Source of the DNA: Octopus sinensis
Taxonomy: Eukaryota
Length of the DNA: 64,000 nt
Assembly: GCF_006345805.1 (NCBI RefSeq)
Contig: NC_043010.1
Span: 372,001-436,000, forward strand
Direction of reading: 5' to 3'
A program made the position numbers and the translations under genes. Shown one piece after another: positions 1 to 58,618 of this stretch (its first letter is position 1; every line of letters begins with the position of its first letter). The notes beneath the pieces were generated by a model. It was not told the origin of the DNA. It saw only the letters and a program-made list of their open reading frames with translations, and searched no databases.

Positions 1-1441
1 GAGGCTATACTCATGAAGTAATGTAGATAATTAAGTAACATAAACAGATTTCTAAAGTTCATTAAAGTTCTTTAAAGATGATGTACAGTCTTATCACAGA
101 ATTTTAAAAAAGTTTTGATAGCATCACAGAGAAGGTGACCTAATCCATATGAATTTCCAGAGATATGATGAGGGATTATATACTCACAGAAGACAAATTT
201 ATCCATTGTTAATTACAACGAGGTGGGTCTCAATTCCTGCTTATTAGCATTACAGAGAGGGTGAATTAATCCTTTGTATAGATGCACAAATTCCAATGGT
301 GTAGATGTAAATTTCCAGAGAAATGGAGATGAATTTCATATTCACAGGCGATAAATTTTTCAATGGTTGAACACAATGAGGTAGGTATCAATTCTTGTTA
401 TATGATTAGGTGTTTGCCACATTAATCACATTACTGCTATTCACAAGAGGCTGTAGCTATTTAACTCTTAAAGGCTGAAGGGCTTACTAGAGCGGCCAAG
501 AATAGAGGAGGGAATAGAAGAAAAGAGAGAAAATAATGGAGGAGGGAGCAAAAAGGGGGGGGGGAAAGGGGGACTAAAAGAGAAGAGAAAAGGAAACAGA
601 GATAGAAGAAGAAAAAGAAAAAAGAGAAAAGAGAAAGATAGGGAAAGAAGGGAAAAAAGAAAAAGAAAAAAAGAGGTTCTAGTTATACAGAAGAGTTAGT
701 AGACTGCAAGTCTGGTTTTAAAACCAGACTTGCAGTCTACTAACTCTTCTTATAACTAGAACCCTCTTTTTTCTTTTCTTTTTTTCCCTTCTTTCCCTAT
801 TTCTTTCTCTTTCTCTTTTTCTTTTTCTTCTTCTTATTCTCTGTTTCCTTTTCTCTTCTCTTTTAGTCCCCCTTTCCCCCCCCCCCCCCTTTTTGCTCCC
901 TCCTCCATTATTTTCTCTCTTTTCTTCTATTCCCTCCTCTATTCTTGGCCGCTCTAGTAAGCCCTTCAGCCTTTAAAGTTAAATAGCTACAGCCTCTTGT
1001 GAATAGCAGTAATGTGATTAATGTGGCAAACACCTAATCATATAACAAGAATTGATACCTACCTCATTGTGTTCAACCATGAAAAATTTATCGCCTGTGA
1101 ATATGAAATTCATCTCCATTTCTCTGGAAATTTACATCTACACACCATTGGAATTTGTGCATCTATACAAAGGATTAATTCACCCTCCTGTAATGCTAAT
1201 AAGCAGGAATTGAGACCCACCTCGTTGTAATTAACAATGGATAAATTGTCTTCTGTGAGTATATAATCCCTCATCATATCTCTTGGAAATTCATATGGAT
1301 TAGGTCACCTTCTCTGTGATGCTATCAAAACTTTTTTAAAATTCTGTGATATAACTGTACATCATCTTTAAAGAACTTTAATGAACTTAGAAATCTGTTT
1401 ATGTTACTTAATTATCTACATTACTTCATGAGTATAGCCTC
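1..1441. repeat. About 720-bp-arm spacerless inverted repeat (left arm probably continues outside the window)
   Basis: 1-719 is the reverse complement of 720-1441 (gaggctatactcatgaag... / ...cttcatgagtatagcctc), centre ctggtttt|aaaaccag. Differences are mostly small indels. Confidence 0.95.
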
Positions 1442-1473
1442 AAACACTAGGATGTCTAGAGAACTCACATGTA

Positions 1474-1563
1474 TTTTAGCTGAGAGTACGGGACTCGTTT
1501 ATATGCTGTAATCTTTGCAACTTTTAATAAAACCTGTCCTTGTATGAAACGATCGTACTAAAA
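1474..1563 (+). ncRNA. Type I hammerhead ribozyme-like motif (1-nt deletion in core) at the 3' end of a Penelope-like element
   Basis: Stem I ttttag/ctaaaa; core ctga-ga; stem II gtacgggac/gtccttgtat with long loop; GAAA; palindromic stem III cgatcg; GUA cleavage triplet. (TA)n follows about 30 nt later. Confidence 0.7.
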
Positions 1564-1593
1564 ACCTATCCATTCTTGTTGCTTCTTTCTCGC

Positions 1594-1632
<39 letters not shown>

Positions 1633-1633
<1 letters not shown>

Positions 1634-1778
1634 CGTTAGGAAGGGCATCCAGCTGTAGAAACACTGCCAGATCTGACTGGCCTGGTGCAGCCTTCGGGCT
1701 CCCCAGACACCAGTTGAACCGTCCAACCCATGCTAGCATGGAAAGCGGACGTTAAATGATGATGATGATGATGATGAT
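1633..1778 (+). mobile_element. RTE-type 3' tail / RTE-tailed SINE fragment ending in (GAT)n
   Basis: gcgttaggaagggcatccagctgtagaaac...ggaaagcggacgttaaat(gat)n; more than 10 related copies in the window, some joined to RTE coding sequence. Confidence 0.75.
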
Positions 1779-2004
1779 ATAGTTAGAAATGGGAAGAAGA
1801 GGATTTAGATTATTCCCATGTGGTGAGTTGTAATGCAAAAAATATATCATAAAAGAAGGAAAATGCACACAGCTTACATAGTTTTAATATATTTTCAATG
1901 AATGAATATCGTGGTTGTCAACCGGTTTCACTTTCCCTAATCATGACATTGAAATTATTGTGATATTTTCTTAAGAAATGAATGAATCAGGCTGAACTTT
2001 CATA

Positions 2005-2058
<54 letters not shown>

Positions 2059-2079
2059 TCAACAGTCAGAAATTTAGAG

Positions 2080-5138: not shown

Positions 5139-5139
<1 letters not shown>

Positions 5140-5172
<33 letters not shown>

Positions 5173-5417: not shown

Positions 5418-5706
5418 GGCTATTCTGTTGATCGGATCAGCTTGAACATTGTTTGTCATAACTGATGGAGTGCCTTCTATAGTAACACACACCTTGTCAC
5501 ATTCTGTGTCACACTGAATCTCCCTGAGAACTACATTAAGGGTAGGTGTCTGTGGAGTGCTCAGCCACTTGCACGTTAATTGATGGGCAGATCAACTGGA
5601 ACATTCATTGTAATAACTGATGGACTGCTGTCTATAGTAACATGCTCCTTGTCAGATTCTGTGTTACACGGAATCTCCCTGATAACTACGTTAAAGGTAT
5701 ACATGT

Positions 5707-5936
5707 CTGGCAGAAACTTTAGCATGCCAGGCGAAATGCTTAGGGGTATTTCGTCCGTCACTACGTTCTGAGTTTAAATTCCGCCGGGGTCGACTTTGCC
5801 TTTCATCCTTTCGGGGTCGATTAAATAAGTACCAGTTATGCACTGGGGTCAATGTAATCGACTTAATCCGTTTGTCTGTCCTTGTTTGTCCCCTCTGTGT
5901 TTAGCCCCTTGTGGGTAGTAAAGAAATAGGTATTTC
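5707..5936 (+). mobile_element. tRNA-derived SINE with probable TSD acatgtctg
   Basis: A-box-like tggcagaaac, B-box-like gagtttaaattcc, body ggtcgactttgcctttcatcctttcggggtcga; acatgtctg occurs on both sides. Confidence 0.75.
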
Positions 5937-6019
5937 ACATGTCTGCGGAGTGAGTGTTCAGCTACTTGTACATTAACTTCATGAGCAGACTGTTCCGTTG
6001 ATCAGATCAGCTGATGGAA

Positions 6020-6560
6020 GACTAAGTCAACCTCTGTGGAATTTGAACTCAGAATGTAAGGACAGATGAAACACCACTAAGCATTTTGTCTGGCAAAGTA
6101 ACAATTCTCCCAGACAAAATGCTTAGTGGTGTTTTATCTGTCTTTATGTTTTGAGTTCAAATGCTGCTGGGGTCAACTTTGCCTTTCATCCTCTCTGGGT
6201 TGATAAAATATTACCAGTTGATCATCATGGTCAATATAACCAACTTATCCTCTCCCTTGAAATAGCTGGCTTTGTACCAAAATTTGAAACTGTTATTATT
6301 ATTATCATTGTTGTTGTTGCTGCTGTTGCTGTTGTTGTTGTTGTTGTGAGCTGTCAGAATTGTTACCACTTTTGGATAAAATGCTTAGTGGTGTTTCATC
6401 TGTCCTTACATTCTGAGTTCAAATTCCACATAGGTTGACTTAGCCTTCCATCCTTTCAGGGTTGATAAAAATAAGTACCAGCTGAGTACTGGGCTCAATG
6501 TAACTGACTAACCCCATCCACCAAAACTTCAGACCTTGTACTTATAGTGGAAAAAATTAT
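6020..6560. mobile_element. Cluster of decayed copies of the same tRNA-derived SINE (one on -, two on +)
   Basis: ggaatttgaactcagaatgtaa (-) near 6040; gagttcaaat plus ctttgcctttcatcc (+) near 6155 and 6415. Confidence 0.65.
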
Positions 6561-8623: not shown

Positions 8624-8624
8624 C

Positions 8625-11192: not shown

Positions 11193-12084
11193 TCAAAATA
11201 ATCAACTGTTCAAACTTCATTTTCATTAAAATCTGGCTCGCCTTAGTGTGCAAGGGAGGTAACTCTTACTGTATTTCCAATGGGTATCCTACCTTCTTCG
11301 TATGTTTAGAATACATCAGAGCGTAAACGAGTATTTTAGTAACATTTATATTTATTCGGGTAAAGTCGATAATCCATTTTGCAGCTACGCCTAATTTCAC
11401 CCTTGATAATATTGTGAGGCAGTGTATGAAGTTTGTGAATATTGTAAAGGTTGATGCAGGGATCGAAGTCAATTGGGGTTTTAGTTATTTGAGAACACAC
11501 ACACACATTTTCTATTGGTTTCAGTCATTGGACTGCGACCATGCTGGGGCACTACTTGACCTTAGCGGTTATTTGAAGTCTGGTTTTTATTCTATCGGTC
11601 ACTTTGACCGAATTGATAGTTTTCGGGGGACGTAAACAAACCTTCAGTAGTTGTTAAGTGGTGAAATGAGAGGTGGGTGGGTGGATGGGTAAAAACAAAC
11701 ACATGCACACGATGGGCTTCCACATAATTTCCGTCTACCCAATTTACTCATGGACTGAACCCAAAACCAAGTTGTTGCAAAGCGTGCTTCTTCACACACA
11801 CACAAAGCACGCATACACACACACAGCACGTATACATACGTGCGATTTGTTCTGGCTACCCGAGTCCAAATATTCTGGAGGTCGACTACCCCTTTTAGTA
11901 CCAGTACTAGAGGTTTTTGCTATCTCTCTGGACAAAAGCGACTTTGGTTAAACCTGGACAAGTATAGGTCCTGCCAGATTTAATCAACGCAAGATCTGTC
12001 ATACATCACAACAATAGTACCTCTCTACATTGATAGTTCAGGGCCCAACTTAAGGTGCAGGAATATATATATATAATAATAATA

Positions 12085-12475
12085 ATCATTATTTGAGGGA
12101 ATATTAATCCTAACTTACAGGGAAAAATTCAATTAAGAAATACTAAATCAAATTTCACACAATATAATATATGTATATTTAAAAATTAGAAAAAAACCAC
12201 CTTTTATCAATTCAAAATGAACAATTAAATTACACCATCTAGAAAATTACATAAATAGAAATATTAAAATTAAAATAACAATAATATACTGATGATTAAG
12301 TAAATTGCAAAAAAATAATAAAAACGTATTATACCAATTATATACGTTTTTATTATTTTTTTGCAATTTACTTAATCTTCAGTATATTATTGTTATTTTA
12401 ATGTTAATATTTCTATTATGTAGTTTTCTAGATGGTGTAATTTAATTGTTCATTTTGAATTGATAAAAGGTGGTT

Positions 12476-12484
<9 letters not shown>
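12085..12484. mobile_element. TA-flanked asymmetric inverted-repeat element (Penelope-like derived, no ribozyme seen)
   Basis: Arms 12185-12329 / 12342-12484; unpaired extension with aacttacagggaaaaat shared with 58363-58587. Confidence 0.7.
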
Positions 12485-12516
<32 letters not shown>

Positions 12517-12548
12517 TATATATACCGTATATATATATATATATATAT

Positions 12549-13027
12549 ATCAACAATCAAGGAACGGCCATAATAGGCCATTCACCCACTAGAAATAACA
12601 GCCAAAGCTTCAACCGCAAATAAAAATCAATTCCGTAAACCAGGAGAAAATTTAAAAAACATTTACCCTGTAATTTCTTATACGATGCACCGTTTCATCT
12701 GCTGTTTAATGGTAAACTAACCTGATTAAATTAAATCAAGAATTGATTTAATTTAATCAGGTTAGTTTACCATTAAACAGCAGATGAAATGGTGCATCGT
12801 ATAAGAAACTACAGGGTAAATGTTTTTTAAATTTTCTCCTGGTTTACGGAATTGATTTTTATTTGCGGTTGAAGCTTTGGCTGTTATTTCTAGTGGTGAA
12901 TGGCCTATTATGGCCGTTCCTTGATTGTTGATGTTGAACTTAAAAATGGTCTATGACTATTTAATTTTTCCCACTAGGCCGCTGGTGGCAAAAAAATTCT
13001 ACAAAATTTTTTGCCACCCTATATTGA

Positions 13028-13030
<3 letters not shown>
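12549..13030. mobile_element. TA-flanked asymmetric inverted-repeat element with the 3' half of a hammerhead in each arm
   Basis: Arms 12549-12739 / 12743-12932 nearly identical; gaaa[c/t]ggtgcatcgta in both; right extension to 13030 with hairpin ggtggcaaaaaaatt/aattttttgccacc. Confidence 0.75.
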
Positions 13031-13092
<62 letters not shown>

Positions 13093-13314
13093 CATATATA
13101 TATATATATATATATACCGTATATATATATATATATATATACAAAATAATAGTTATCGCCATACTAATATGGCATTCTTATAAAAATAAGAAAAAAGCTG
13201 TCCGCTTATTAGCTCCATGAGGCCATCGCCTTAAGTTAGCTATTTGATACACAAACTGTATCCATATAACCTTCGAACAAGGGAGGTCAGTCGCTCCACA
13301 CTACTTGACCGGCA

Positions 13315-13356
13315 GCTACGGACGCGTTTCGGAGTATTGCCCCTTTTCAATGCAGC
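13315..13356 (-). ncRNA. Minimal type I hammerhead, U3-A8 core variant (copy 1, first stem I pair mismatched)
   Basis: Minus strand gctgca-TTGAAAA-gggg caata ctcc-GAAA-cgcg-TC-cgtagc. Confidence 0.65.
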
Positions 13357-13675
13357 GTAGCCAGCCAGTAGGTGTCGCTTCCGACAATCTCTGTTCGATG
13401 GTTTTATTTACCTAGTTTCGGTGGAATACATCCACTTGTTTTCAATAATAGAAATATTAAAATAACTAAGTCTCTCTAAAAGAGAACAGCGGCAGCGTTC
13501 CCGGAAAATAATAGTTATCGCCATACTAATATGGCATTCTTATAAAAATAAGAAAAAAGCTGTCCGCTTATTAGCTCCATGAGGCCATCGCCTTAAGTTA
13601 GCTATTTGATACACAAACTGTATCCATATAACCTTCGAACAAGGGAGGTCAGTCGCTCCACACTACTTGACTGCA

Positions 13676-13717
13676 GCTACAGACGCGTTTCGGAGTATTG
13701 CCCCTTTTCAATGCAGC
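13676..13717 (-). ncRNA. Minimal type I hammerhead, U3-A8 core variant (copy 2, intact)
   Basis: Minus strand gctgca-TTGAAAA-gggg caata ctcc-GAAA-cgcg-TC-tgtagc; 6-bp stem I, palindromic stem III acgcgt, GUC triplet. Confidence 0.75.
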
Positions 13718-14162
13718 GTAGCCAGCCAGTAGGTGTCGCTTCCGACAATCTCTGTTCGATGGTTTTATTTACCTAGTTTCGGTGGAATACATCCACTTGT
13801 TTTCAATAATAGAAATATTAAAATAACTAAGTCTCTCTAAAAGAGAACAGCGGCAGCGTTCCCGGAAAATAATAGTTATCGCCATACTAATATGGCATTC
13901 TTATAAAAATAAGAAAAAAGCTGTCCGCTTATTAGCTGCCGGTCAAGTAGTGTGGAGCGACTGACCTCCCTTGTTCGAAGGTTATATGGATACAGTTTGT
14001 GTATCAAATAGCTAACTTAAGGCGATGGCCTCATGGAGCTAATAAGCGGACAGCTTTTTTCTTATTTTTATAAGAATGCCATATTAGTATGGCGATAACT
14101 ATTATTTTCCGGGAACGCTGCCGCTGTTCTCTTTTAGAGAGACTTAGTTATTTTAATATTTC

Positions 14163-14196
<34 letters not shown>

Positions 14197-14198
14197 CC

Positions 14199-14235
<37 letters not shown>

Positions 14236-14254
14236 ATATATATATATATATACC

Positions 14255-14292
<38 letters not shown>

Positions 14293-14302
14293 TGTATATA
14301 TA

Positions 14303-14337
<35 letters not shown>

Positions 14338-14340
14338 CCG

Positions 14341-14734
14341 TTCAGCAAAATTTAGATTCAAATGAATATGGTGCTTTAGTTAGATGCACCAGAATTTTGT
14401 ATGGTGTTATCCATATAAATCCATGGGATGATTATAATCAAATAAGCAACAAGAATAACTTCGGTAATTTGGTACGATTGTTTCACGCTACATCATTTTA
14501 TTAAATGTTGTAAGTATTACAACAGTTTTAAAATGTTGAGCAATCATCAGCCATTAATAGAGGTTTTCCATTACAATTGATATGAAAATTATGTATTAAT
14601 GGAAAATCTCTATTAATGGCTGATGATTGCTCAACATTTTAAAACTGTTGTAATACTTACAACATTTAATAAAATGATGTAGCGTGAAACGATCATACCA
14701 AATTACCGAAGTTATTCTTGTTGCTTATTTTGAT

Positions 14735-15063: not shown

Positions 15064-17775
15064 TTACGTAGAACCTCCTCTAATATGTGGCACTTGGTGA
15101 AGAATGGAGTTTGATATAGCTACTCTCATTTGCACCTCTTGCCGTGAGGTAGGTTCATCTGGGACTCTCGACAAGAAGATGTCCAGCTTTTATTTAAAAA
15201 CCGCTACATCTACTTTGTGCAAGTTCCTCAGACTCTTTGGGAGAATATTAAAAAGCTGTGGGCCCTTGAAACCCAGGCTGTTGCAGAAGCTGGTCCTGAA
15301 GCGTGATGGCATTGCTGGGATCTTTGGCACTATGCAGTGTCGTCCCGTTCAAGCATTGGTGTAGCTTACAATGCCAAAATTTGGCACAATTCCTTCCAGG
15401 ATCTTCCAGACATATATTACTGCATACCTTTCCCGTCTTCTCTCCAGGGAGTAGAGTCTTAGCTGTTTCAACCTTTCCCAGTAGCTGAGCTGTTGCAAAG
15501 AGACGATCTTCTTTGTGAATCTTCTCTGGATTGCTTCAAGGTCCGCTGTTAATTTTACACTGGTGGGTGACCATAGCTGTGAGCAGTAATCCAGGCGACT
15601 GAGGACGAATGTCCGCCAGAGGACCATCATGGTTTCCTTATCTCTGGTTCTGAATGTTCTTAGGATCCACCCAGCCAGTCGTCTGCACTTTGTCGCCATC
15701 CTGGTAATGTGCACTTGGAAAGAGGTATCATCACTAATGTTGATACCCAGGTCCCTCACAGACTTAGGCTCTGGGATTGAAATTCCCTGTGGACCGGTGT
15801 ATCCTGTAAGTTTAATATTCAGCCTTGGATGCTGGTAGCGCAGGGCCTGGAATGTTTCAGCATTAAACTGCATATTATTATCCTCAGCCCATCTGTAGAT
15901 TGAGTCCAACTCCTGCTGCAGGTGTGCAACATCGCTGGGGTTCTGTATTTTCTGCGAGACTTTCGTATTGTCTGCTTAGCTTGCCAGAGTGGCTATCCGG
16001 GCATTTGAGGGCATATCTGAGAGGGCCACTATAAAAAGCAGTGGTCCCAAGACAGTGCCTTGTGGAACACTGCTCACTATTTGTGTGTTCATAGAGGTGG
16101 CTCCATTAACCACTACTGCCTGGCTCCTATCTTTCAGGAAGTCATGCAACCACACTCCAAGTTTTCCAGCTATGCCGAGGTCACGTAGTTTGTGGCATAT
16201 CATACCATGATCCACCTTGTCAAAAGCTTTTGCAAAATCAAGGTAGATTACATCCACATTTGATTTGTTGAGTAACTGCCTCAACATCCAGTCATAATGT
16301 TGTAAGAGCTGGGTCAGGCAGCTCCTACCTGGTCGAAAACCATGCTGGGTATCACTCAGCAAGTTATTTTCCTCAAGGAATGCGATTAGTTTCTTTCTGA
16401 CTATCCGTTCCATGACTTTGCTGATGTGTGAAGTCAGAGAGATAGGCCTATAGTTTTTGGCATCTGCTCTACTTCCCCCTTTATGTATTGGGCATATTAT
16501 TCCCTCCTTCAGGTTGCTTGGCAGTTTGCCATTCTCAAGAAAGCTCTGGAAGAGAATCTTGAGGAGTTTTGCCAGGGCATGCTCACACGCTTTGAGGAGG
16601 ATGGCTGGGAAACCATCTGGACCAGCAGCTGAGTTTGTGTCCACTTCATCTATGGTTAGTAGGACATCTTTTTCGCTAATGTCAATACATTCTATTGTAA
16701 CCGCCTCGCTGGTTATAGGTGAGGCGGCAAAGAAGTCCACTGGTTCGTTCACTTGTTTGTGTTCCAACGGGGTGGTAAAGACACTTTTGAATTGGTCATT
16801 CAGCATCTCACTGATCTTAGTTGGACTGTCTGTGAGGGAGCCATCCTTTTGGAGGAGGGGTCCTATCTTGTAGTGCACTGAGACTGTTTCTTTTGCGTAA
16901 TGAAAGAAGGCCTTTGGGTTTGTTTAATATTTTTTATAACCCAGGCTTCTTTGTCTGCTTTCTCCTTCACATAGGATTGTTGCAGCCTTTTTTCGATCTC
17001 CATCAGCGTTGTTTTTAGGCGGGACGTTTCGCTACTTTTAGGATGTTGGTTGAGGTGATTTGCAACCTTCGTCCTCTCATGAGGATCTTCCTGTCTCTTG
17101 GAATCTTGCTCCTATTTGTTTTGGCCTTGTGCTCTGGGACATATTTCTGGCATACAGCTTGCACAGAAGGCATGAAACATTCTAGTTTCATGTCAATGTC
17201 TGGTGTGGTGAGACATTCCGGCCAGTCCTCTCTGAGGATCTCTTTTTGGATCGATTTCGAATTTGCTTTGTGGAAGTTCAGATTGGAGAGATTTCGGGTG
17301 CTTCCTTTAGGCTGTATGTCTCTGGTTACTTTTGGCCCAAACATAGACAGCTCTATTATGTTGTGATCCGAAACTGATCTTCAAACTTGCCTATGTGATT
17401 TGGGGCATCCGGTGGGCAATATGTATTGCATATGACTATATTATGTTGTCTTATGTATACAATTAAAGTGTCACATACCGAATTTGAGTATGTCATCTAG
17501 ACCTGGGGTGTGAGGTCATCTCGGATGTATACAGCAACTCCACCATGGCTCCTTTCCCGTCTGTCTGTTCGCAGTATGGCATAGTTTGGTATGTGTACTT
17601 CTGCGTCCTCTATATCAGGGCTGAGGTGAGTTTCCACAAGTGCTATGCATAGGGCTTGATTGCATGCAGTAAGATCTCTCAGGAAAGAAATTTTGTTTCT
17701 ATTTTGATGCAACAGGCCCCCAATATTTAGTAAAAGTATTGGGGTGGCGGCTGTGCAGGCGTTAGGGGAGGCCAT
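15064..17775 (-). pseudogene. LINE ORF2 (APE endonuclease plus reverse transcriptase), disrupted
   Basis: LLLNIGGL, ALVETHL, RTDR..SHGGVAVY, YCPP, SDHNII (intervening endonuclease segment deleted); YRPISLTS, QHGFRPGRSCLTQLL, YLDFAKAFDKVDH, VPQGTVLGPLLF; catalytic YADD mutated to *ADN at about 15967-15978; frameshifts. Confidence 0.92.
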
Positions 17776-18674
17776 CCCGTGTCTGTTGACTGTGGTGGTC
17801 TTGCATAGTGGTGGGCAGGGTTCCTTCTCTGTGCTTGGTGTAGCCAGGTTAGCTGCCGGACAATTCTTTGCGCCATGCACAAAAAAGACTCTTGCTCAGC
17901 TGCTGAGTTGCGCAGAACATCTGAGGAGTGCACTTCGTTTTTGAAAGTTTTCCTGGGAGACATTTCTTGTGTTCCCTCAGTAAAGCTCTTCTCTTTGAGT
18001 CCCCTGAAGTTCTGGCGGGGTGTCGGGTGGGCGAACTGGCAGTTTTTGCCGTCCTCACCATGCCAACATTTGCCCCGCAGGTAGAACTTACAGGTTCTTC
18101 GGTGCCTTCCAGATTTCTTCTTTCCTGAAGTGTACTGGGGGGCATTGGATCCTCCAGGGGGTTCCCTGCTGTTTGTGTCGGGGGTTGGGGTTTCAGCTTT
18201 GGTTGTTTTGCCTTTTCCCTCCCTATTTTTGTTTTCGGTCCTTCCTTTTTTCTTCTGTTTTTCTAATTTCTCATTTCTTTGTAGGACTACTGGTACAGGG
18301 GGGCTTCCGGTTTCTGCTCCCTTGGCTCCCCTATCCTTCACTACCTGGTCGTTCACCTGGGTAGGTGATCCATTTTCCTGAGGAACCCCTGGATCACAGA
18401 GACTTCCAGCTTCCTTCTCTTTTTTGTCTTCTTCATCCTCATCAGCCTTGCCACAATAATTTTCAATTATGTTATCCAGTGTTTTGATGTGTGGTCTTAT
18501 AAGCATGTAAGACCGGATAAATTCACCTTTTTCCTGTTCTATCTAGTCAATGGTTCTATGAAATCCATTGTTCTTTAGCTCGACAGTGATGATGTTGTTT
18601 GGCGGATCGCCACTAGCAATCGTCCATGCTCTGAGCAGAAGATTTAACTCTTTCTTTTCCCACTTTGGTGCCAT
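17727..18674 (-). pseudogene. LINE ORF1 (about 315 aa; Myb/SANT-like N-terminus, CCCH zinc finger), one premature stop
   Basis: MAPKWEKKELNLLLRAW...GFHRTID*IEQEK continues in frame into the 259-aa ORF with CKFYLRGKCWHGEDGKNCQFAH; overlaps the ORF2 start. Confidence 0.75.
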
Positions 18675-22139: not shown

Positions 22140-22144
22140 TACTG

Positions 22145-22193
<49 letters not shown>

Positions 22194-22218
22194 AACTACT
22201 ACTACTACTACTACTACA
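22140..22218. repeat. (ACT)n microsatellite immediately 5' of the start codon
   Basis: Direct reading; ends 3 nt before ATG 22222. Confidence 0.95.
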
Positions 22219-22221
22219 AAT

Positions 22222-25749: not shown

Positions 25750-25990
25750 TTAAGTGAAATGACAAATAACTGAGAGTTTCTTACAAAAAAGGGGAGTTTA
25801 GTACTCTTTACATATTTTAGCCACAAATGTCCAAAATCAAAAGTGGAAGCAGCAAAGAAATCTTTTCTAACATGGTCAGATCTTCATAGTGAACATTTTT
25901 TTTTTTTTTACTCTGTTTATGTCTGATGATGGGCTTTTGTGCCTGAAACATATAAAGGTTTTTTTAAACTGTCCCCCCTTTTTCACATTC
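25750..25990. mobile_element. Old diverged inverted-repeat element with a degenerate hammerhead
   Basis: CTGATGA-tgggc ttttgt gcct-GAAAC at 25923-25949; diverged reverse complement at about 25786-25833. Confidence 0.5.
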
Positions 25991-26107
25991 ACGTGGAGCT
26001 TTAGGTGTTTTCGCTCAATAAACACTCACAACGCTCGGTCTGGGAATCGAAACCGCGATCCTACAACCGCGAGTAAGCTACCCTAACCACTGGGCCATTG
26101 TGCCTCC
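25990..26107 (-). mobile_element. tRNA-derived SINE 5' part
   Basis: Minus strand ggaggcacaatggcccagtggttagggtagc...gatcgcggtttcgattcccagaccgagcgttgtgagtg. Confidence 0.75.
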
Positions 26108-28567: not shown

Positions 28568-28848
28568 AGGGAGAAAAGAGAAAATTGGAATACAATGTGG
28601 AAAGTTTCACAAACTTTTCCACATTGTCAGATTACACCTACATTTGAAGAGTGGCTGCTACTGCTAGCAAAACACTGAGGGATTTGAATGGATTAATGGG
28701 ACCTGTATAACTTGACATTATCTAGACTATTTACCTCCTGAAAATGGGCCTTTGTGCCTGAAATATAAAGATTTTGTAAAACTTTCCTATTTTTTCTCTT
28801 TTTTCCATTCTTTGATATTACAATGCTTCAAGCGAACTACAATGTTCA
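28568..28848 (+). mobile_element. TA-flanked element with degenerate hammerhead and partial terminal inverted repeat
   Basis: ctgaaaa-tgggcctttgtgcct-gaaatata (28738-28767) related to 25923; hairpin acaatgtggaaagttt/aaacttttccacattgt. Confidence 0.45.
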
Positions 28849-30403: not shown

Positions 30404-30682
30404 ATATATATATGTATATATGTATATATATATTTGTATGTATATATGTGTATATATATGTATATATATATATATATATTTGTATATATATGTGTATATA
30501 TATGTATATATATATGTGTATATATATATATATGTATATATATGTGTGTGTATATATATGTATATATTTGTATGTATATATGTATATATATATATTTGTA
30601 TGTATATATGTATATATATATTGTATGTATATATGTAATATATATTTGTATATATATATTTGCATATATATATTTGTATATA

Positions 30683-30714: not shown

Positions 30715-30904
30715 GTCGGTCCCGGGTTGAGTCGGGGTAACCACAGTAAATAAGGTACTCAATACATAGCAGAGTAAATTAATTTATTTTATAGAAGGAG
30801 CTTCTACAGGACTAGAACTGTTTCATTCAAAAGAAATCATCAGGAAGCTCCTGATGATTTCTTTTGAATGAAACAATTCTAGTCCTGTAGAAGCTCCTAT
30901 AAAA

Positions 30905-30910
<6 letters not shown>
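30715..30910. mobile_element. TA-flanked palindromic element made of two head-to-head hammerheads
   Basis: Arms about 30782-30845 / 30849-30911; left unpaired extension from 30715. Confidence 0.8.
30798..30850 (-). ncRNA. Type I hammerhead, canonical core (mirror copy on + at about 30844-30897)
   Basis: gagcttc-CTGATGA-tttc tttt gaat-GAAA-cag ttctagtc ctg-TA-gaagctc; 7-bp stem I, GUA triplet. Confidence 0.8.
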
Positions 30911-30950
<40 letters not shown>

Positions 30951-30981
30951 GTATATATATTTGTATGTATATATGTGTATA

Positions 30982-31030
<49 letters not shown>

Positions 31031-31109
31031 ATATATATGTGTATATATATGTGTATATATATGTATATATATATGTGTATATATATATATGTATATATAT
31101 GTGTGTGTA

Positions 31110-32242: not shown

Positions 32243-32563
32243 TTGCAGCGTGGAAGGTGTTTGTAAGCCTTTAAGAAACACACAAACCCGTTACATTCAC
32301 TTCAACATTTAAATTTAATTTGCCAAAATATTTTCGTCGCTTTCAGACCGCGACCTGTTCACTGACAAAAATATCGTGCTAACAGGTCGCGGTCTCAAAG
32401 CGCCGAAAATTTTTTACAAATTAAATTTAAATGTTGAAGTGAATCTAACGGTTTTTGTGTGTTTCTTAAATGGCTTATAAACACCTTCAACGTTGCAACT
32501 GTTTTTCGTTCCAGCACACGATCTCAGATCAAGTCACTTGCTATGCAAGTACATCTCTGTAAC
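32243..32563. mobile_element. TA-flanked asymmetric inverted-repeat element with a variant hammerhead
   Basis: Arms 32243-32359 / 32381-32498 (several substitutions); right extension to 32563. Confidence 0.8.
32319..32369 (-). ncRNA. Hammerhead-like fold, G3-C8 core variant
   Basis: tttgtca-GTGAACA-g-gtcgc ggtctgaaa gcgac-GAAA-atat-TT-tggcaaa; palindromic stem III aatatt. Confidence 0.6.
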
Positions 32564-39183: not shown

Positions 39184-41104
39184 TATACAGGTTACAGGTT
39201 TAGTGATGCAAAGGGAAAAATAGAATTCAAAGCATGAGTGTGTGTATATATATATATATATATTATTATTATTATTAATATTTAGCAGAAGCAACAAAGT
39301 GACTCAAGGGCCAAACCCAAGGCTATACAGGAAGACACATGCCCAAGGTACCATGCAGTGGGACTGGACCTAGGACCATGTGGTTGGGAAGTAAGCTTTT
39401 TACCACACAGCTACACCTATGTTCATATTTATATTAAAATTTCAATTCACATCTCAAAAGTGTGACATGACTGCCAGTAAGTGAGTGTAATTATGTATGC
39501 AATTGTGTGCGTGTGTGTGTGTGTACACCTAACAGATGTAGATACAGAGTTTGCTTTGTTACCATGTGGTTTGAACTTTTATCTCATCGGTACCTTGAGC
39601 AAATATCTTCTATAAGACAGTTTCCATCTATGAATTTCTTTCATGAAATACTGTGAGTGAAATTGGTAGGTGGAAACTTTTTTGAAGTCTGCTGTATATG
39701 TATATATTGTGAGGACCTCTTAGTCTTGTGAAAAGTATGAAATCTCTCTCATGTTGGAGCCACAAAAACATCCACTACCCTCTCCAAGATGGTTGGTGAT
39801 AGGAAATGGAAAGCAAATGAGGCAAGGGCCCCAAACCCATCTAAGTGAGCTGTATCCCCACTGAATATGGACTGACTCATTCGTGATGACCTGTCCAGTC
39901 CATGTCGGCATAGAAAGCAGATGTATGATGATGATGATGATGTCAGTATGTGTATGAGAATGCTTGCATTTCTCAATTTGTATGGATAGTGCCGATCTAT
40001 AAATGGTGATGTTTGTTGACATTACTGTGACCACAGTTATTCTTTGTGCTTGAAAACTGTAGGATAGAAAAAAAATCAGGTTTGTGAGAAGTAATCAATG
40101 CCTCAGTACTATGTTTTTATTCATCCCATACTAATATGGGGGGAAAATGAATTAATGAATGAACATTTATAAACTCTAATGTAGGACAAAAAACAGAACA
40201 GCCTCTCTCACATGTATTTCAACTACATACCTGTTGTAGATATGAGGTCCAAGTCTTGTGGGAGAGTTTGTATATGCATCATCATGCATATGTATATAAA
40301 TGTTAACATATGTTTATTATTTTAATGAGAGGGAGGATAAGTTAAAAAGATAGAGAAAGTGAAAATTACTAGGAATAGAAGCAGTAAATAAAGAAGAGAT
40401 GGAAAGAGACATCACCAACTTGCTATCTCACAGAGCAAGATTAAAAATATCAATTACTTTGCAGTGAATTAAAACTAGTTCTCTGATTGAATTGTGCCGT
40501 TGAATTCTGCATTGATAAAATTTAAAAACCACATTTTGATAAAAATATATTAAAATTTGAATTTTCAAGAATTTTCTAGGCAGTGTAGACTTTAATAATT
40601 GCTTTCTTTTAGTAAAAGTTATATACTTATAACTAATTAATAAGCAGCTTTCTTTATTATAGTATAGATATAAGCCAGTTCCAGAATAGCAACAGAACAC
40701 TTACTAATGGACTGACTCAATACTGAGAACAGAATCAAATTTATTCATAAAGTTGACTGGGACTTCAAGTTTCATCTATCAGTTTGTTCAGCATGGTTGA
40801 ACAAGCCAACAATGATTCTTGAAGTCCTAGTTAACTTGATCTTCACAGGTAATATGTATGTATATGTATGTTTGCAAACATATTTTGTGTATGTATGTAT
40901 ATATGTATGTATAACAGCTTAATGTATCATGAAATAAAAGTTAATATTATTTTATTAATATCTCCAGATTTTTAATATTTAAAAAAATGTACCATTAATT
41001 AATTGAAAGACTTAAAGAATTTCTTGTCTAAAATAAAACGTTTAACAAAACATTATTACAGAATAAATCACACAGAACATATGTTATAATTATGATGTTA
41101 TGTT

Positions 41105-41600: not shown

Positions 41601-42632
41601 ATCGAGTTTGACTTATGTAAGCTATTATATGATATGACTGTGTGTGTGTGTAAAAAGGAAACTACCGTAACTTGCAAGCGAATATGATCTGGTAGCATTT
41701 TTCGTTTCTTGTAAACATCTGAGGTTCCAACAAGGAGTCATTGGATGTAATTGTTAAATTTTTATTGATCAAAGGCATTCCAGCCATGACAATCCAGTCT
41801 TTTTTAATCAGGCATAATGTTATCCAGTCTGTCTTTGTTATTGTTTAGTCCCAAGTCAGTCCTTATTAGCAGATATGATGAAAAATATTCTAATCACGAT
41901 CATCCACTGATTCTTTTCGGACTTAATGTAGCTGGGACTGCTTTGGCTAATGTGTCATTCCTTGTGGTTGCTGTTATTGTTTAGCTGCAGGTCATCCTTC
42001 ATGCAGCAGAGCCATGACCAGTGGCCCTCCAGTTGTGGCATGGATACACCACACACACACACACACACACACACAGGGGGACACATACAAATGTACTGTA
42101 TTTCACACACATGTGCAAATACACACAGATATATATGCAATTATGCTGTATCTTAAATTTTCTCTCTCTCTTTCTCTCTCTCTCACACACACACACATAC
42201 CGCAATCACAGATTAAAATCAACCAGGCAGAAGATGACCCTTTAAAAAAGAGCTTTTCACTATGGATAAAGATTGCAAAGATAAGAAATAAGTGAGATGG
42301 AAAAATAAATAGTGCATCTTGCATTGCAGGCTGGGGTTGCTAGGATCCAGTAATACTAGAAGCATCACTCTCCTGTATTCCCATTCTTGACACATGGCTA
42401 TAATATAAATTCAGTGACCACTGCTCAAAGTAGCATTTATGTTTATACAATCATAGGTCAACATACACAGACATAACTTACAAGAATACATACACAAACA
42501 CGCATCATAAGATATATGTATATATATATATATGTATATATAGGGAGAGTTTACGAAAAAAACAAAAGACGAAGACAGGTGGTGTACAAAACAAACAGAT
42601 GTATTAGTATAACACTCAGGAATAGAAAAAGT

Positions 42633-42668
42633 CTTTTACGTTTCGAGCCTACGCTCTTCTACAGAAAG
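42633..42668 (-). ncRNA. Minimal hammerhead-like motif (A6U variant) within TA-flanked element 42542-42718
   Basis: cttt-CTGTAGA-a-gagc gtag gctc-GAAA-cg-TA-aaag. Confidence 0.5.
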
Positions 42669-42739
42669 GGACAGAGAAAAATGTGTGTAGTGGTTAATGA
42701 TCTATCATGGCAACTTGATATATATATATATATATATCA

Positions 42740-51991: not shown

Positions 51992-52024
<33 letters not shown>

Positions 52025-52154: not shown

Positions 52155-52173
52155 TTGATAACAACACCACCAC

Positions 52174-52231
<58 letters not shown>

Positions 52232-52276
52232 CCACCACCAAGCACCAACCACCACCAAGCACCAATCACCACCACC

Positions 52277-52308
<32 letters not shown>

Positions 52309-54496
52309 CAACACCACCACCACCACCACCAACCAACCACCACCAACCAAACAATCACCACCACCACCACCACCACCACCACCACCACCACCACCACACC
52401 ACACAACAACAACAACCACCACCACCAAGCACCAACCACCACCAACCACCAATCACCACCACCACCACCACCACACACCACCACCAACCACTAACCACAC
52501 CACACCACCACCACCACCAACCAACCAACCACCACAACTCACCAAACCACCACCACCAACACCCCAACCACCACCACCACCAACCCCACAACCACCAACC
52601 ACCACCACCACCAAGCACCAACCACCAACCACCACCAACCACCAATCACCACCACCACCACCACCACCACCACCACCAACCACCAACCACTAACCACCAC
52701 CACCAACCACTAACCACCACCAACCACCACCACCACCAACCACTAACCACCACCAACCACCACCCACCACCACCACCACCACACCACCAACCACCAACAA
52801 CCACCACCACCACCACCAACCAACCACCCACCACCACCACCACCACCACCAACCACTAACCACCAATAACCACCACCACCACCACCACCACCAAGCACCA
52901 ACCACCAACCACCAATCACCACCACCACCACCACCACCATCACCAAGCACCAACCACTAACCACCACCAACCACCACCACCACCAACCACTAACCACTAA
53001 CCACCACCACCACCACCAACCACCAACAACCACCACCACCACCACCAACCACTAACAACCACCACCACCACCAACCACAAACCACCACCAACCACCACCA
53101 CCACCACCACCCACCACCAACACCACCACCACCACCACCAACCCCACTACCACCAACCACCACCACCACCACCACCAACCACCAACTCCACCCACCACCA
53201 CCACCAACAACCACCACACCACCACCCCACCCACCCCCCACCAACCACCAACAACCACCACCAACCAACCACTACCACCACCAACCACCACCACCACCAC
53301 CACCAACCACCAACAACCAACCACCACCACCAACCACTAACCACCACCACCACCACCCACCACCACCACCACCACCACCACCAACAACCACCACCACCAC
53401 CAACCACTAACCACCACCACCACCACCACCACCACCACCAACCACCAACAACCACCAACCACCACCACCACTAACCACCACCACCACCACCACCACCACC
53501 ACCACCAACCACCAACAACCACCACCACCACCAACCACTAACCACCACCAACCACCACCACCACCACCACACACCACCACCACCACTAACCCCCCACCCC
53601 ACCACCACCACCACCACCAACCACCAACAACCACCACCACCACCAACCACCAACCACCACCAACCACCACCACCACCACCACCACCACCAACCACCACAA
53701 CCACCACCACCACCAACCACTAACCAACCACCCCAACCACCACCACACCACCACCACAACCACCCCAACCACCACCACCACACCACCACCACCACCACCA
53801 AGCACCAAGCACCAACCACCAATCACCACACCACCACCACCACCACCAACCCCAACAACCACCACACCACCACCACCACCACACCACCACCAACCACCAA
53901 CAACACCAACCACCAACCACACCACCACCACCAACCACTACCACCAATCACCACCACCACCCCACCCCACCACCACCACCACAACACCACCCACCACCAC
54001 CACCACCACCCACCAACCACCACCACCACCACCACCACACACCACCACCAACCACTAACCCACCACCCACCACCACCCACCACCAACCACCACAACCACC
54101 ACCACCACCAACCACTAACCACCACCAACCACCACCACACCACCACCACCACCCACCACCAACCACCAACCAACCACCACCACCAACCACTACCACCACC
54201 ACCACCACCACCACCACACCACCACCACCCCCCACCACCACCACCACCAGCACCAACCACTAACCACCACCACCAACCACCACCACCACCACACCACCAC
54301 CACCACCACCACCCACCACCACCAACAAGCACCAACCACTAACCACCACCACCACCACCACACCACCACCAACCACCACCACCACCACCACCACCACCAC
54401 CAAGCACACCAACCACTAACCACCACCAACCACCACCACCACCAACCACTAACCACTAACCACCACCAACCACCACCAACACCACCACTAACCACC

Positions 54497-54528
<32 letters not shown>

Positions 54529-54535
54529 CAACACT
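52155..54535. repeat. 2.4-kb (CCA/CAA)n compound low-complexity tract
   Basis: Direct reading; recurring variants aaccact, caagcac and caatcac. Confidence 0.97.
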
Positions 54536-55330
54536 ACTTGTAAGAACAACACCAGAGCCAAAGATACTTCAGCAACAATATTAACAACATGAATAACACC
54601 ATCAGCAGCAACCTCACAAAGTTTACAAAACCAACAACTACAACAAAAATGAAGACCCCAAAACAACAAGAACCATAGCAACAAGTACAAATGCAACAAT
54701 ATCTACAAAAATAGGCAATAGTTATAGTAATAGCAGTAGTAGTAATAGTAGTAGTAGTGGTAGCAGCAGTAGTAGTAGTAGTATTTGTATTAATAGTAGT
54801 AACAATAGTTGTAGTAAGAGTTGTAGGGATATTAACAGTAGTAGTAGTAGTAGTAGCAGCAAACATAACTACAAAAAATTAAAATAAAAATTAATTGAAT
54901 TGACCAAAAAGTCATTAATAACAAGCTGAAATTATGTAAATCATCTTAGTTTTTTTGTGTTTTTGTTTATTCACACACACACATACAAATACACACGCAC
55001 ACACACATACAAATACACATGAATTTATTTTATAATTTTCTCCCCTTTATTTTATATATTTTGTATATTTTGTTTTTCTAGTTCTTTTCCTCTTGCCATA
55101 TTTTATGCTTTGAAAAATTATTTTCAAATATATTTATTGGTTATTACAAATTTTAATTAATGTTTAAAACATGTATATGTATGTTTAAAGCGTGTATATA
55201 TGTGTGTGTTTAAGAGAGAAAGAGAGGTGCATACACACACATGAATAATGTATGCTTTGTGTATACTTATATATTTGTTTGTATGTATATCTGCATAGTT
55301 CTTTTTTTATAAGAATGTGCGTGTATATAT

Positions 55331-55368
<38 letters not shown>

Positions 55369-56898
55369 CATTTGTGTGGCTTTGTGTGTGCATACGCATA
55401 TATCTACATGTATATATATTTGTGCAGTGTGCATATGTGTGAGACAATTTCAAAATGAATGAAAATATATATATATAATTCAAACACAAATCATAAGTGG
55501 ATTTTATACAGTACTTAGGATACAGAAGTGGCTACTTAAGTTTCTTGGAGATGCATACCAACAATACTTTATGAGAGTACATTTTTTGTACTTCAATAAA
55601 TTATCAGTCTGAGAAGCAACATGCAGTAACAAATTGTAGACTCCTACACATGGATTTATGCTAGATTCAAATGAATGCTTAAATCACAAAATTTATGGCT
55701 AACACTATAAAGTTAAGTGCGTTACACATTTAATTAGTATTATCATGGGTGCGTAACATATTGGTTACTCAGTTAAAAAAGCATAATCATTTTTTCCGAC
55801 AAATGCTGCAAAAAGCTTTTAATTGAGAAAGAGGAGGATGCAACGAGTTGTATGCATTGGAAAGCTCTGTCTTTTGATACTGAGATGGTAAATTCTGCTG
55901 CTCTGTTTTGTGATAACTTCTCAGTTAATGCATTGCTTCTCCGTATGATGATTTCTTGAGGTAGCCAAAATCTGGATTCTTCTTAGGTGCAATTGGAATG
56001 CATTTTTATGTATTGCTATCCATCATCTTCTCATCCCACACCCATTACTATTTTCCTTAAATTTCTCCACACTGAGATTTACCATTACCCATGCTTGCAC
56101 ATGTGTTCGCCATTCACTGCACTTACCTCTCTCCTCAACTCTTTTCACGAACCTACCTTGATTCTCTGTCCTTATTCTCTCTTTATCCAGCTTGTACCTC
56201 ATCTCTACTGTCTTTTCTCCTATTCCAACCAGGGTAGCTATATGTCTCTGCCACTGTAAGACACTTGTTCCCATCCTTCTATCATAATTTAGTCTCCCAC
56301 ACCTGATACAAAGCCACCTCCCTCAATACTCTTCCCCCACTCTAGAAGTTTAGTCTTGTGAGTTTCTCCTCTCCTAGCATAAGGCTTCTCCCTTGGGGTT
56401 CATACTCCTACAAACTGCATGGTGACCTCACTTGTGCTGGTGCCATGAAAAAAAAGCACCAAGTACACTTTGTAAAGGGGTTAGGGTTAGGAAGGCATCC
56501 AGCCATAGAAATCATGCCAAAAACAGACAATTGGAGCTCAACACAGTCCTCTGGCTTGTCAGATCCTCTCAAACAGTCCAACCCATGACAGCATGGAACA
56601 TGGAAATTAAATGATGATGACGACATGATTTGAATATAATTATGTTTAGCTCTGTGGCATTTTCATATGTTATTTGTCAGCTGAAGTAAATAAAAGATGA
56701 ATATATTAACAATAATGACAAAAAAAAAAACCCCAGAAAGAAAAGGAACCAACAAGTAAACCTTCTATTTTACCCCTAATGTGATCCATGGAATCTTTAA
56801 ACCTAATGCAAGGGCCAAAATGGACCAAATCATATGAAACCAGCAAAAAGAAAAAAAAGAAAAACGAAAAAAACTGGACCAAATAGACTTTTTTGCAT

Positions 56899-56935
<37 letters not shown>

Positions 56936-56937
56936 TG

Positions 56938-57008
<71 letters not shown>

Positions 57009-58211
57009 ATATATACAAATGCACACATAAATATGTTCTTTCAAGTATTTATTAGAAAAGTTGCTTTAGTTATTTTGTCATTCTTAGATTTAATATATAT
57101 ATATATAAACACACACACACACACACATATACATACTTATATGTGTGTATGTAAAAATATACACAACCTCTTCCACACACACACACACACACATTCCCAC
57201 AGATTGTCTAGAGTCTCCAGCCCCATGATGGAGATGTACATTGAACACAAATTAGTAATAAATTTTGAATATCTGAATGTTACCATTACACTGGAACTGT
57301 CTGTGAACCATATTTAAACTACTATACTATGTATGTGAATGTGTTGTGTCAGCTTTATTGTATGGCAAATGTGTTGAACTGTTGAACTTTAGAGATCTGA
57401 CTGTTTTAAACCAAAAATGAAGGAGCAAATCTATGTAAAGTAAACTACACTTAAGCAAAAGTAAACCAAACCAGAACAAACCATATCAAGCTAAACCAAA
57501 CCAAACCAAACCAGTCCAAATGAAGCCAAATTGAAATGGAACCAAAACAAACCGTATCAAACTATAGCAATCTAAATCAAACTACATCAAACCAGACCAA
57601 ATCAAGCCAAATTGAAGCCAAACCAAAGCAAGCCCAACCCAAATTATTTTCTGGTGATTAAAATAACTCATTTCTTTTTGTCCCTGAAGTGAAAATAAAA
57701 ATAATAAAAAAAAAAACAATAAATGAACAAAAAAAAAATCAACAAACTACACACGGTTCTAATAAAAATTTATTGTTTTATGACATCATGCATTTAAAAA
57801 TTTTCAATTTTACTTATTTGCATTTTTTTTTTTTTAAATTGTTTATATTTATGCTTGTCTCAGAGGTCAGAAATGTTAGAGTTTCAAACAAGATGGTTTG
57901 TGGTATTTACCATATTTGATGGCATAAAAGATGCATGAGCTCATTAAGTGTTGCCCAATTTCAGGAGAACATATTCAAGAAAAATGTTTTTAACACATTA
58001 ACCCTTTTGTTACCATATTTCTGTCAAAATATGCTGCCTTTGTTTCAGCTAGTTCTTAAAATAATGAAGAATTTAGTAAAATACCTTTCTCATTATTAAA
58101 CAGGGGTCTGGAACAAATTAGCGTAAAGTTTTGATGGAAGATTATAATTTAGACCTCTTTAAAACTGTAGGTTGCAATAATATTTAACCGTTTAGTATTC
58201 AGATTACTCAG

Positions 58212-58582
58212 AAGTGGCTGTGTGGTAAGTAGTTCCAGGTTCAGTCCCACTGCGTGGTACCTTGGACAAGTGTCTTCTACTATAGCCTCGGGCCAACCAA
58301 AGCCTTGTGAGTGGATTTGGTAGATGGAAACTGAAAGAAGCCCATTGTATATATATATATATATATTATATTAAATTAGAGACTTAAGCCAATACATATG
58401 ATTAATTTATATTATTTAAATGATATAAATTAATCATATGTATTGGCTTAAGTCTTTCATTGTTTGATTTGCCTAATAGTGGTTTTGTCTCTAATTTAAT
58501 ATAATATAATATTTTACTATAAAATTGGATTCAATCCTAAATCTGATTTTTCCCTGTAAGTTTGGATTTATTCCCTAATATT

Positions 58583-58618
<36 letters not shown>

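Follow-up and report, generated by a model that had tools for sequence, protein, structure and literature searches.

The window analyzed here, the whole stretch of 64,000 nt, contained 11 non-coding inserts (A to K), all of which were found by sequence inspection at the places given in the initial annotation. Clear inverted repeats were present in 8 of the 11 inserts (A, B, C, D, E, H, I, and K), with arms 92 to 100% identical over aligned columns and one-sided extensions of 55 to 155 nt. Insert A (1..1594) had arms of ~720 bp, a perfect hairpin center at 720/721, a 154-nt right extension, and (TA)19 at 1595; its left end is the window edge, and its asymmetry and left flank lie outside what the window can show. 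Insert B (12075..12482) had ~144-bp arms (98% identity) and a left extension of ~110 nt between TA tracts, and insert C (12551..13030) had ~188-bp arms (99%) with a 100-nt right extension. Insert D (13143..14162) consisted of a tandem arm on the minus strand (13143..13937) and an inverted arm on the plus strand (13933..14162), which were 100% identical in the arm alignment. Insert E (14341..14734) had ~137-bp arms (98%), a 23-nt spacer, and a 99-nt left extension. The 56-bp arms (98%) of insert H (30715..30904) were accompanied by a 72-nt left extension, with the center at the 5' strand of stem I of its ribozyme, and the ~116-bp arms (92%) of insert I (32243..32563) by a 66-nt right extension. 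Insert K (58363..58587), with TA tracts on both sides, had 44-bp arms (93%) and a right extension of ~125 nt. The three remaining inserts were an old one with diverged arms (F, 25750..25995; 81% over 53 nt), bordered by (CATA)n and a SINE-like fragment instead of (TA)n; one with a short left arm, a 16-nt arm pair by alignment, and interrupted TA tracts on both sides (G, 28568..28847); and a single, non-inverted arm on the minus strand between TA tracts (J, 42542..42716). The description of most inserts as asymmetric inverted repeats was largely confirmed. A was related to E (74% over 87 nt), the outer end of B to K (73% over 143 nt), and F to G (83% over 52 nt), and the 11 inserts thus represent approximately eight families; the inserts had been called mostly unrelated, which holds for these families but not for the three pairs of kin.

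The palindromes could have arisen as fold-back artifacts of sequencing or assembly, as the 16 small gaps between the arms of A, in a pattern typical of read errors, and the complete identity of the D arms might suggest. This is highly improbable, since the arms differed by substitutions in seven elements (25 in total), both ends lay in TA with target duplications, opposite-strand joints of the D family were present in an independent sequencing run (X1), and the same shape was found in contigs of other animals. If transcribed, the hairpins may be ADAR or siRNA substrates, as suggested in the initial annotation; the 25 substitutions showed no A-to-G bias, which is a weak test of A-to-I editing.

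Next, we examined the insertion targets. Of the 21 checkable insert ends, 18 were no more than 15 nt from a (TA)5+ tract, compared with 4.9% of window positions, although this count is circular because the insert boundaries were set partly by the TA tracts. In a separate inverted-repeat survey after simple-repeat masking (21 rows at 11 places, with one TA-variant array of 7 rows left out), an arm end lay within 8 nt of a TA tract at 7 of 10 places; 5.9% of random intervals had an end within 15 nt. The arm ends away from TA tracts were those of A (154 nt away) and of the repeats at 5704-6452 and 40747-40840. The (TA)n targeting proposed earlier is supported, with the exception of F, which had a TA tract at neither end. 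The interrupted TA tracts to the left of D (13093..13144, plus strand, with CA, CCG, and CAA markers) and to its right (14173..14234, plus strand) are probably a target-site duplication of ~50 to 60 bp, and the interrupted tracts flanking G also shared a pattern, with duplicated target markers as at D. The output of a direct-repeat search of the window was dominated by microsatellites. Palindromic, non-coding, TA-flanked inserts would also be expected of MITEs of TA-targeting Tc1/mariner-type DNA transposons. Such an origin is very unlikely for inserts with unequal arms and internal rather than terminal repeats, which include hammerheads, a tandem unit, the non-inverted J, and target duplications of tens of bp instead of a 2-bp TA.

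Hammerhead folds were searched with a scored type I descriptor that accepts any Watson-Crick 3:8 pair and was written and tuned after the elements had been read by eye. Complete folds were found in 6 of the 11 inserts (A, D, E, H, I, and J). The fold of A (1474..1563, plus strand) had a 6-bp stem I, a core one nucleotide short, a long stem II, and a palindromic stem III. Both folds of D were on the minus strand and had a U3-A8 core: copy 1 (13315..13356) had a predicted cleavage site between 13321 and 13320 and a private base at +1, and copy 2 (13676..13717) had a 6-bp stem I, a 4-bp stem II with a 5-nt loop, and a palindromic stem III. E carried one outward-pointing fold with a long stem II in each arm (14469-14553, minus strand, and ~14617-14701, plus strand). 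The other three were on the minus strand: a complete hammerhead with a stem III hairpin in H (30796-30852), a swapped G3-C8 core with a 7-bp stem I and a 5-bp stem II in I (32319-32369), and a minimal hammerhead with U in place of A6 in J (42633-42668). Scores were matched in 0 of 40 shuffles for A and for D, 0 of 100 for H, I, and J, and 3 of 100 for E. The window had five matches scoring at least 9.5, all within inserts, whereas 30 shuffles had 0 to 2 (mean, 0.4). With a canonical-core descriptor, three matches were found compared with 0 to 3 in 12 shuffles; two other strict descriptors gave one and five matches in the window. The comparison of a relaxed descriptor with shuffled sequence, proposed as a check, thus gave an excess with the post hoc scored version and no enrichment with the canonical core. 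Minimum-energy folding gave parts of the shape, with the full hammerhead in none of eight segments, and no hammerhead family was present among the 150 of 168 Rfam matches listed (E ≤ 5), which were only hairpin and microsatellite matches below gathering scores.

By eye only, partial hammerheads were recognized in C (12786-12801; the 3' half, with GAAA, a near-palindrome, and UA, the insert center lying within stem II), F (from 25923, plus strand), and G (degenerate; from 28738, plus strand). In F and G, the core, stem II, and GAAA were present, but stem I or the cleavage triplet was defective. The nine whole or partial hammerheads reported earlier are therefore reached on a generous count of six complete and three partial folds. 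No hammerhead in B or K passed the descriptor, and the best match in B was equaled in 19 of 100 shuffles; B carried a look-alike with a core and AAAA instead of GAAA, which failed the descriptor. At the level of titles and abstract starts, the literature searched contained no natural G3-C8 hammerhead, with the variant catalogue of Lunse et al. 2017 outside the comparison, and no description of a cephalopod hammerhead, Craig 2021 being the sole item on the topic. In the Craig 2021 supplement, four of five short window motifs were absent, and one 9-mer had three matches, of which the two listed were in unrelated context. In the hammerhead of PAc, a lizard Penelope-like element (PLE; Poseidon PAc of Anolis), the C3G/G8C change retains partial activity (Frangieh et al. 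2024, PMC11167929). Standard descriptors overlook the G3-C8 and U3-A8 cores, which occur here as natural variants; the cephalopod families, if the predicted activity is true, would supply natural active cores with three 3:8 pairs (C-G, U-A, and G-C).

The ribozyme strand pointed outward in all five inverted-repeat inserts with a complete fold and, by eye, in C, F, and G; only the look-alike in B faced inward. In addition, metagenome contigs of other animals contained 118 loci (104 distinct) with a J-type hammerhead, and in the 30 loci where an inverted repeat overlapped the ribozyme, the arrangement was tail-out in 30 of 30. These results support the outward orientation reported earlier. A looser earlier count of the loci had given 42 outward, 5 "inward," and 71 without a repeat; the repeats of the five "inward" cases were centered 115 to 490 nt downstream, and none was left after duplicate removal and a rule of arm-ribozyme overlap.

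PLE-type coding sequence (RT/endonuclease) was present a short distance upstream on the same strand in 4 of the 118 loci (L006, L026, L077, and L090), 65 of which have at least 500 nt upstream. In L026, this upstream sequence matched Pfam RVT_1 and encoded a GIY-YIG-type domain that contains a Cys linker. Within the window, 64 PLE proteins gave a best E value of 0.22 (tblastn), and 25 short insert frames had no significant Pfam match. Exact-pattern scans gave no match for A/E, D, or the J-type motif in viral contigs and none for F/G in metagenome contigs. The proposed adjacency of the families to reverse transcriptase (RT) and GIY-YIG open reading frames (ORFs) was thus absent from the window and present for the J-type motif in other animals; on sequence grounds, the link of the window's families to such ORFs would consist only of a motif shared with those animals.

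The inserts were compared with endonuclease-positive (EN+) PLEs (Neptune, Naiad, Hydra, and Penelope/Poseidon), which form head-to-head inverted 5'-truncated copies with a one-sided tail and a (TA)n bias (PMC8557442, PMC3846280). The two share head-to-head copies, the one-sided tail, the TA bias, a 3'-end hammerhead, and a junction palindrome or microhomology, but the window inserts have no ORF and their tails are longer (55 to 155 nt, compared with 30 to 40 bp). B and K are without a hammerhead, as are Naiads (PMC8557442). The minimal type I hammerheads found in PLEs of metazoans occur as opposite-strand pairs 100 to 700 bp apart, with many families per genome, a pattern that Cervera and De la Pena 2014 (PMC4209133) attributed to ends of autonomous PLEs after 5' truncation. 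These hammerheads resemble those of the window in the palindromic stem III, large stem II, U3-A8 variant, opposite-strand pairs, and an extra base after A9, which is found in F, G, I, and J; the G3-C8 core of I, the A core one base short, and the 60-nt stem II regions of A and E are unmatched in the descriptions available in that source. Inverted copies, a one-sided tail, a 3'-end type I hammerhead, and a TA target were all present in the window. For the D family, TA junctions in sequencing-run contigs marked two 3' end positions ~60 nt apart, the second in one contig.

Altogether, the inserts are likely PLE retrotransposition products of approximately eight families, mostly 5'-truncated ends of autonomous PLEs, with D as a retrozyme mobilized in trans and the palindromes as by-products. 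Most inserts probably represent pLTR/3'-UTR ends left by 5' truncation, and their parent PLEs likely belong to TA-targeting clades. The PLE connection and shared integration mode suggested in the initial annotation agree with the head-to-head arms of unequal length, the TA targets, and the duplicated markers at D and G. As a whole, the inserts are known PLE debris whose anatomy is already described (PMC8557442, PMC3846280, PMC4209133), and they do not constitute a new system; they are useful for annotating a probable cephalopod (octopod) genome. It is unlikely that most or all families instead consist of non-autonomous ribozyme elements in their own right, resembling retrozymes or SINEs and lacking an ORF-bearing parent. 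D behaves in this way and no insert has a coding trace, including the 875-nt sense arm of A, but D is the only tandem insert, the distance between center and ribozyme varies, which 5' truncation predicts, the same motif class lies downstream of PLE ORFs in the four metagenome loci, and most such motifs were seen as lone PLE remnants by Cervera (PMC4209133). The earlier suggestion of several non-autonomous families is supported only for D, with its self-closing tandem unit; for the others, truncated autonomous PLEs account for the observations equally well or better.

The PLE products may have formed from two short cDNAs, one primed at either nick in the (TA)n target; both would halt early and be joined at their 3' ends by microhomology or a small palindrome. 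Two cDNAs primed and joined in this manner necessarily have their RNA-sense strands outward. On this reading, the palindromes would arise as by-products of insertion rather than have a function of their own. In vitro, the RT/GIY-YIG protein of PAc nicks and extends both strands of AT-rich DNA, and reverse transcription from two internal RNA sites gives a one-sided tail (PMC11167929). Self-priming by fold-back of a single cDNA or antisense template, as proposed in Arkhipova 2013 (PMC3846280), would also be compatible with a PLE origin and with the perfect or near-perfect hairpin centers of A, C, and H. We consider this route possible but doubtful, because contiguous copying of the long arm cannot yield I or D and because the lizard enzyme extends both target strands. 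In I, a 5' stretch of ~22 nt that comprises stem I and the core is present in the short arm but missing from the long arm, and the inverted arm of D has the variant of tandem copy 1 and extends ~55 nt farther than the tandem arm as a tail; together these indicate two separate cDNAs, not one fold-back. Central deletions after insertion could mimic the arm asymmetry of I.

The tandem arm of D comprised 2.2 copies of a 361-nt non-coding unit with 41% GC, a circular fold z score of -5.0, which is compatible with a circular RNA, and a hammerhead of canonical architecture in each unit. This agrees with non-LTR retrozymes, defined by a tandem non-coding unit of 150 to 450 nt with a type I hammerhead in each. 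The D family was found at very high copy in 20 sequencing runs of 10 studies, and the unit joined back on itself in all four runs examined, in one of them as a single 392-nt contig. Among the 18 D-family loose ends listed (a further 140 were unlisted), no ORF-like sequence was present, and contigs break at branches. Loose ends running into TA were seen at 13445 in 29 and 12 contigs and at 13144 in a single contig; on the circular unit, these positions are separated by ~60 nt. D resembles metazoan non-LTR retrozymes in its non-coding tandem unit (361 nt, compared with 350 to 390 in mussel), GC below 50%, and hammerhead per unit (PMC7229834), and also in the strongly self-paired circle, very high copy, and long target duplication (PMC7229834; 10.64898/2026.07.22.740005; PMC7761336). 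D differs from them in its U3-A8 core and in its insertion with an inverted arm and tail of PLE type. The word "inverted" is absent from the main text of PMC7229834 and, in the available text of Li et al. 2026 (bioRxiv 10.64898/2026.07.22.740005) and PMC7761336, occurs only in the reference lists. From its sequence, D is probably a non-autonomous non-LTR retrozyme with a self-closing 361-nt tandem unit, and it seems to have been inserted by PLE-type machinery, as indicated by the inverted arm, tail, and long target duplication.

The inverted arm of D started 3 to 8 nt past the predicted cleavage site, with 5-nt microhomology at 13933-13937, and the tandem copies differed from each other at three positions only, +1, +9, and +11 after that site; the inversion point and copy differences all within 11 nt of the site come from one insertion only. 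PAc does not need ribozyme cleavage and gave no reads ending at the cleavage site (PMC11167929), whereas the junction and copy differences of D lie there. D was probably copied in trans from ribozyme-cleaved or circular RNA. We tentatively propose that D may be a canonical-hammerhead retrozyme with a full PLE integration signature that records its ribozyme-cleaved or ligated circular RNA template. If so, D would provide direct genomic evidence that PLE enzymes in vivo use ribozyme-cleaved RNAs or ligated circular RNAs as templates and make errors where the ends were ligated, and genome-wide counts of D-like junctions would bear on who mobilizes animal retrozymes and on the role of the hammerhead. 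The case for PLEs as mobilizers of animal retrozymes has been built on co-occurrence and phylogeny; a retrozyme such as D, at very high copy and with junctions of PLE type, allows the idea to be tested in genome sequence. The D-family runs include no RNA run on record, which says nothing on expression, and the family's contigs showed no A-to-I editing signature in a weak test. The A>G differences in two probable RNA runs (X14 and X17, whose RNA status is guessed) were also present in DNA runs.

All 11 inserts proposed in the initial annotation were located in the window: A (1-1594), B (12075-12482), C (12551-13030), D (13143-14162), E (14341-14734), F (25750-25995), G (28568-28847), H (30715-30904), I (32243-32563), J (42542-42716), and K (58363-58587). 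Eight of them showed the predicted inverted-repeat form, with clear arms of 92 to 100% identity, but F was diverged, the arm of G was very short, and J had no arms. The differences between the arms showed no A-to-G bias. The DNA is animal, and microsatellites are abundant throughout the window. Contact with (TA)n was supported by a tract of (TA)5 or longer at 18 of the 21 checkable ends, compared with 4.9% of positions, a count affected by the placement of insert boundaries partly by the TA tracts themselves. In an independent survey of 10 inverted-repeat places, one TA-variant array being left out, an arm end lay within 8 nt of a TA tract at 7 places, whereas 5.9% of random intervals had an end within 15 nt of one. 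The inserts had been described as mostly unrelated; because A and E, B and K, and F and G are related, they represent about eight families.

Several local features accompany these inserts. B, C, D, and E are crowded in one TA region (12483-14340), whose CCG interruption recurs five times. This recurrence could reflect a target duplicated by successive insertions, footprints left by excised elements, or E-type ends truncated to an extreme degree. Insert A contains a diverged internal direct duplication (152-244 and 310-401, 76% over 93 nt), which is mirrored in its right arm. H is flanked by an interrupted TA pattern of about 150 bp at 30404-30560 and 30905-31100, the left copy not directly adjoining it. 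Diverged inverted repeats lacking TA flanks were also seen at 40747-40840 and 5704-6452, the latter apparently composed of a short dispersed repeat in opposing orientations.

The Rfam search gave no hammerhead for the window among the best 150 of 168 matches, and hits of a canonical-core descriptor across the window were not above those in shuffled sequence. Cores read by eye had a U3-A8 pair in D and a G3-C8 pair in I. A descriptor accepting any Watson-Crick 3:8 pair, which was tuned post hoc once the elements had been inspected, returned complete folds in A, D (twice), E, H, I, and J. Shuffled sequences equaled the element score in 0/40 cases for A and D, 3/100 for E, and 0/100 for H, I, and J. 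Five hits in the window scored at least 9.5, all within inserts, compared with a shuffle mean of 0.4 (n = 30). Thus, of the nine whole or partial hammerheads claimed, those of A, D, E, H, I, and J were complete, but those of C, F, and G were partial and recognized by eye only; B and K showed no hammerhead. All five complete folds within inverted repeats pointed outward, as had been claimed. Both arms of B carry an inward-facing hammerhead look-alike (12288-12330) with AAAA instead of GAAA, and its variable core position 7 differs between the arms.

In metagenome contigs of other animals, a pattern for minimal hammerheads like that of J matched at least 118 loci, 104 after duplicates were removed. 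Among the matches listed, an inverted repeat overlapped the ribozyme in 30 of the 104 loci, and all 30 were tail-out, with RNA-sense 3' ends facing away from the center. The center lay between -15 and +10 from the core start in 22 of these 30 listed loci; the pattern demands an intact core, which biases the center positions and leaves orientation unbiased. PLE-type coding sequence was present upstream on the same strand at 4 of the 118 loci among the matches listed, and at one of them (L026) it included RT and a GIY-YIG-type domain. In one metagenome hammerhead family (L010, L018, L019, L020, L029, L033, L072, and others), many copies begin 3 to 9 nt upstream of the core, and many share one 3' end position. 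Within the 64-kb window, 64 PLE proteins gave no match (best E, 0.22), and no ORF was tied to its own insert families. Therefore, the PLE link of these families rests on anatomy and motif class.

In published accounts, Naiad, Neptune, and Hydra PLEs carry a 5'-truncated inverted copy at the 5' end and a tail of 30 to 40 bp at one end, and they target (TA)n (Craig et al. 2021, PMC8557442). The tails of the window inserts exceed this length. Likewise, head-to-head is given as the commonest arrangement of PLE copies, with palindromes noted at the junction (Arkhipova et al. 2013, PMC3846280), and minimal hammerhead pairs on opposite strands, 100 to 700 bp apart, are interpreted as truncated PLEs in a text that also reports a U3-A8 core (Cervera and De la Pena 2014, PMC4209133). 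The initial annotation was largely correct, including its PLE reading, but the architecture was already known, and the inserts add members to described element types.

A PLE protein has been shown to nick AT-rich DNA on both strands, to extend both, and to start at two internal RNA sites (Frangieh et al. 2024, PMC11167929). We infer that nicks on both strands of a TA tract each prime a short cDNA and that the two cDNAs join at microhomology; such joining would leave the sense strands facing outward, the arms of different length, and the target in two copies. Around both D (about 50 to 60 bp) and G, interrupted TA tracts occur in duplicate. Simple fold-back could also generate palindromes, and A, C, and H are compatible with it as well as with double priming. 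However, I and D argue against fold-back: the short arm of I contains about 22 nt of 5' sequence missing from its long arm, an asymmetry that a later central deletion could mimic, and the inverted arm of D is not a contiguous copy of its tandem arm.

Insert D consists of tandem copies of a 361-nt unit and an inverted arm. The unit was found in 20 runs from 10 studies under 7 organism labels. Among four runs examined, it closed back on itself in all four, reached summed contig depths of about 0.04 to 1.8 million in two large runs, had TA loose ends at two positions separated by about 60 nt, and showed strand switches in one; one run, which we guess to be RNA, gave a single self-closing 392-nt contig. 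The majority bases of those runs at 13320 and 13333 give better stem I and stem II pairing of the D ribozyme. With canonical ribozyme dimensions, a GC content of 41%, and a circular fold z of -5.0, the unit fits non-LTR retrozymes. The inverted arm starts 3 to 8 nt past the predicted cleavage site, and the tandem copies differ at three sites, +1, +9, and +11 from it, the +1 base being private to this copy relative to the runs examined. The junction and copy differences, seen post hoc in one insertion, hint at a cleaved or ligated template; assembly error or ordinary stem I variation could also be the cause. D is the single lead meriting genome-wide follow-up.

Elsewhere in the window, a single long frame at 22111-24183 encodes a C2H2 zinc-finger tandem, whose C-terminal part best matched an Octopus vulgaris protein (38% identity over 29% of the query); the DNA therefore probably comes from an octopod. 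A LINE-type element on the minus strand (15349-18542) carries RVT_1 (RT, 15976-16923) and an upstream CCCH-finger frame, and a 3' fragment of similar type (29941-30311) is flanked by two TA-variant arrays. Two elements with TC-rich starts, at about 31108 and 32660, resemble Helitron-derived repeats. A degenerate (CAC)n array of 2.3 kb (52165-54512) showed extreme strand skew.
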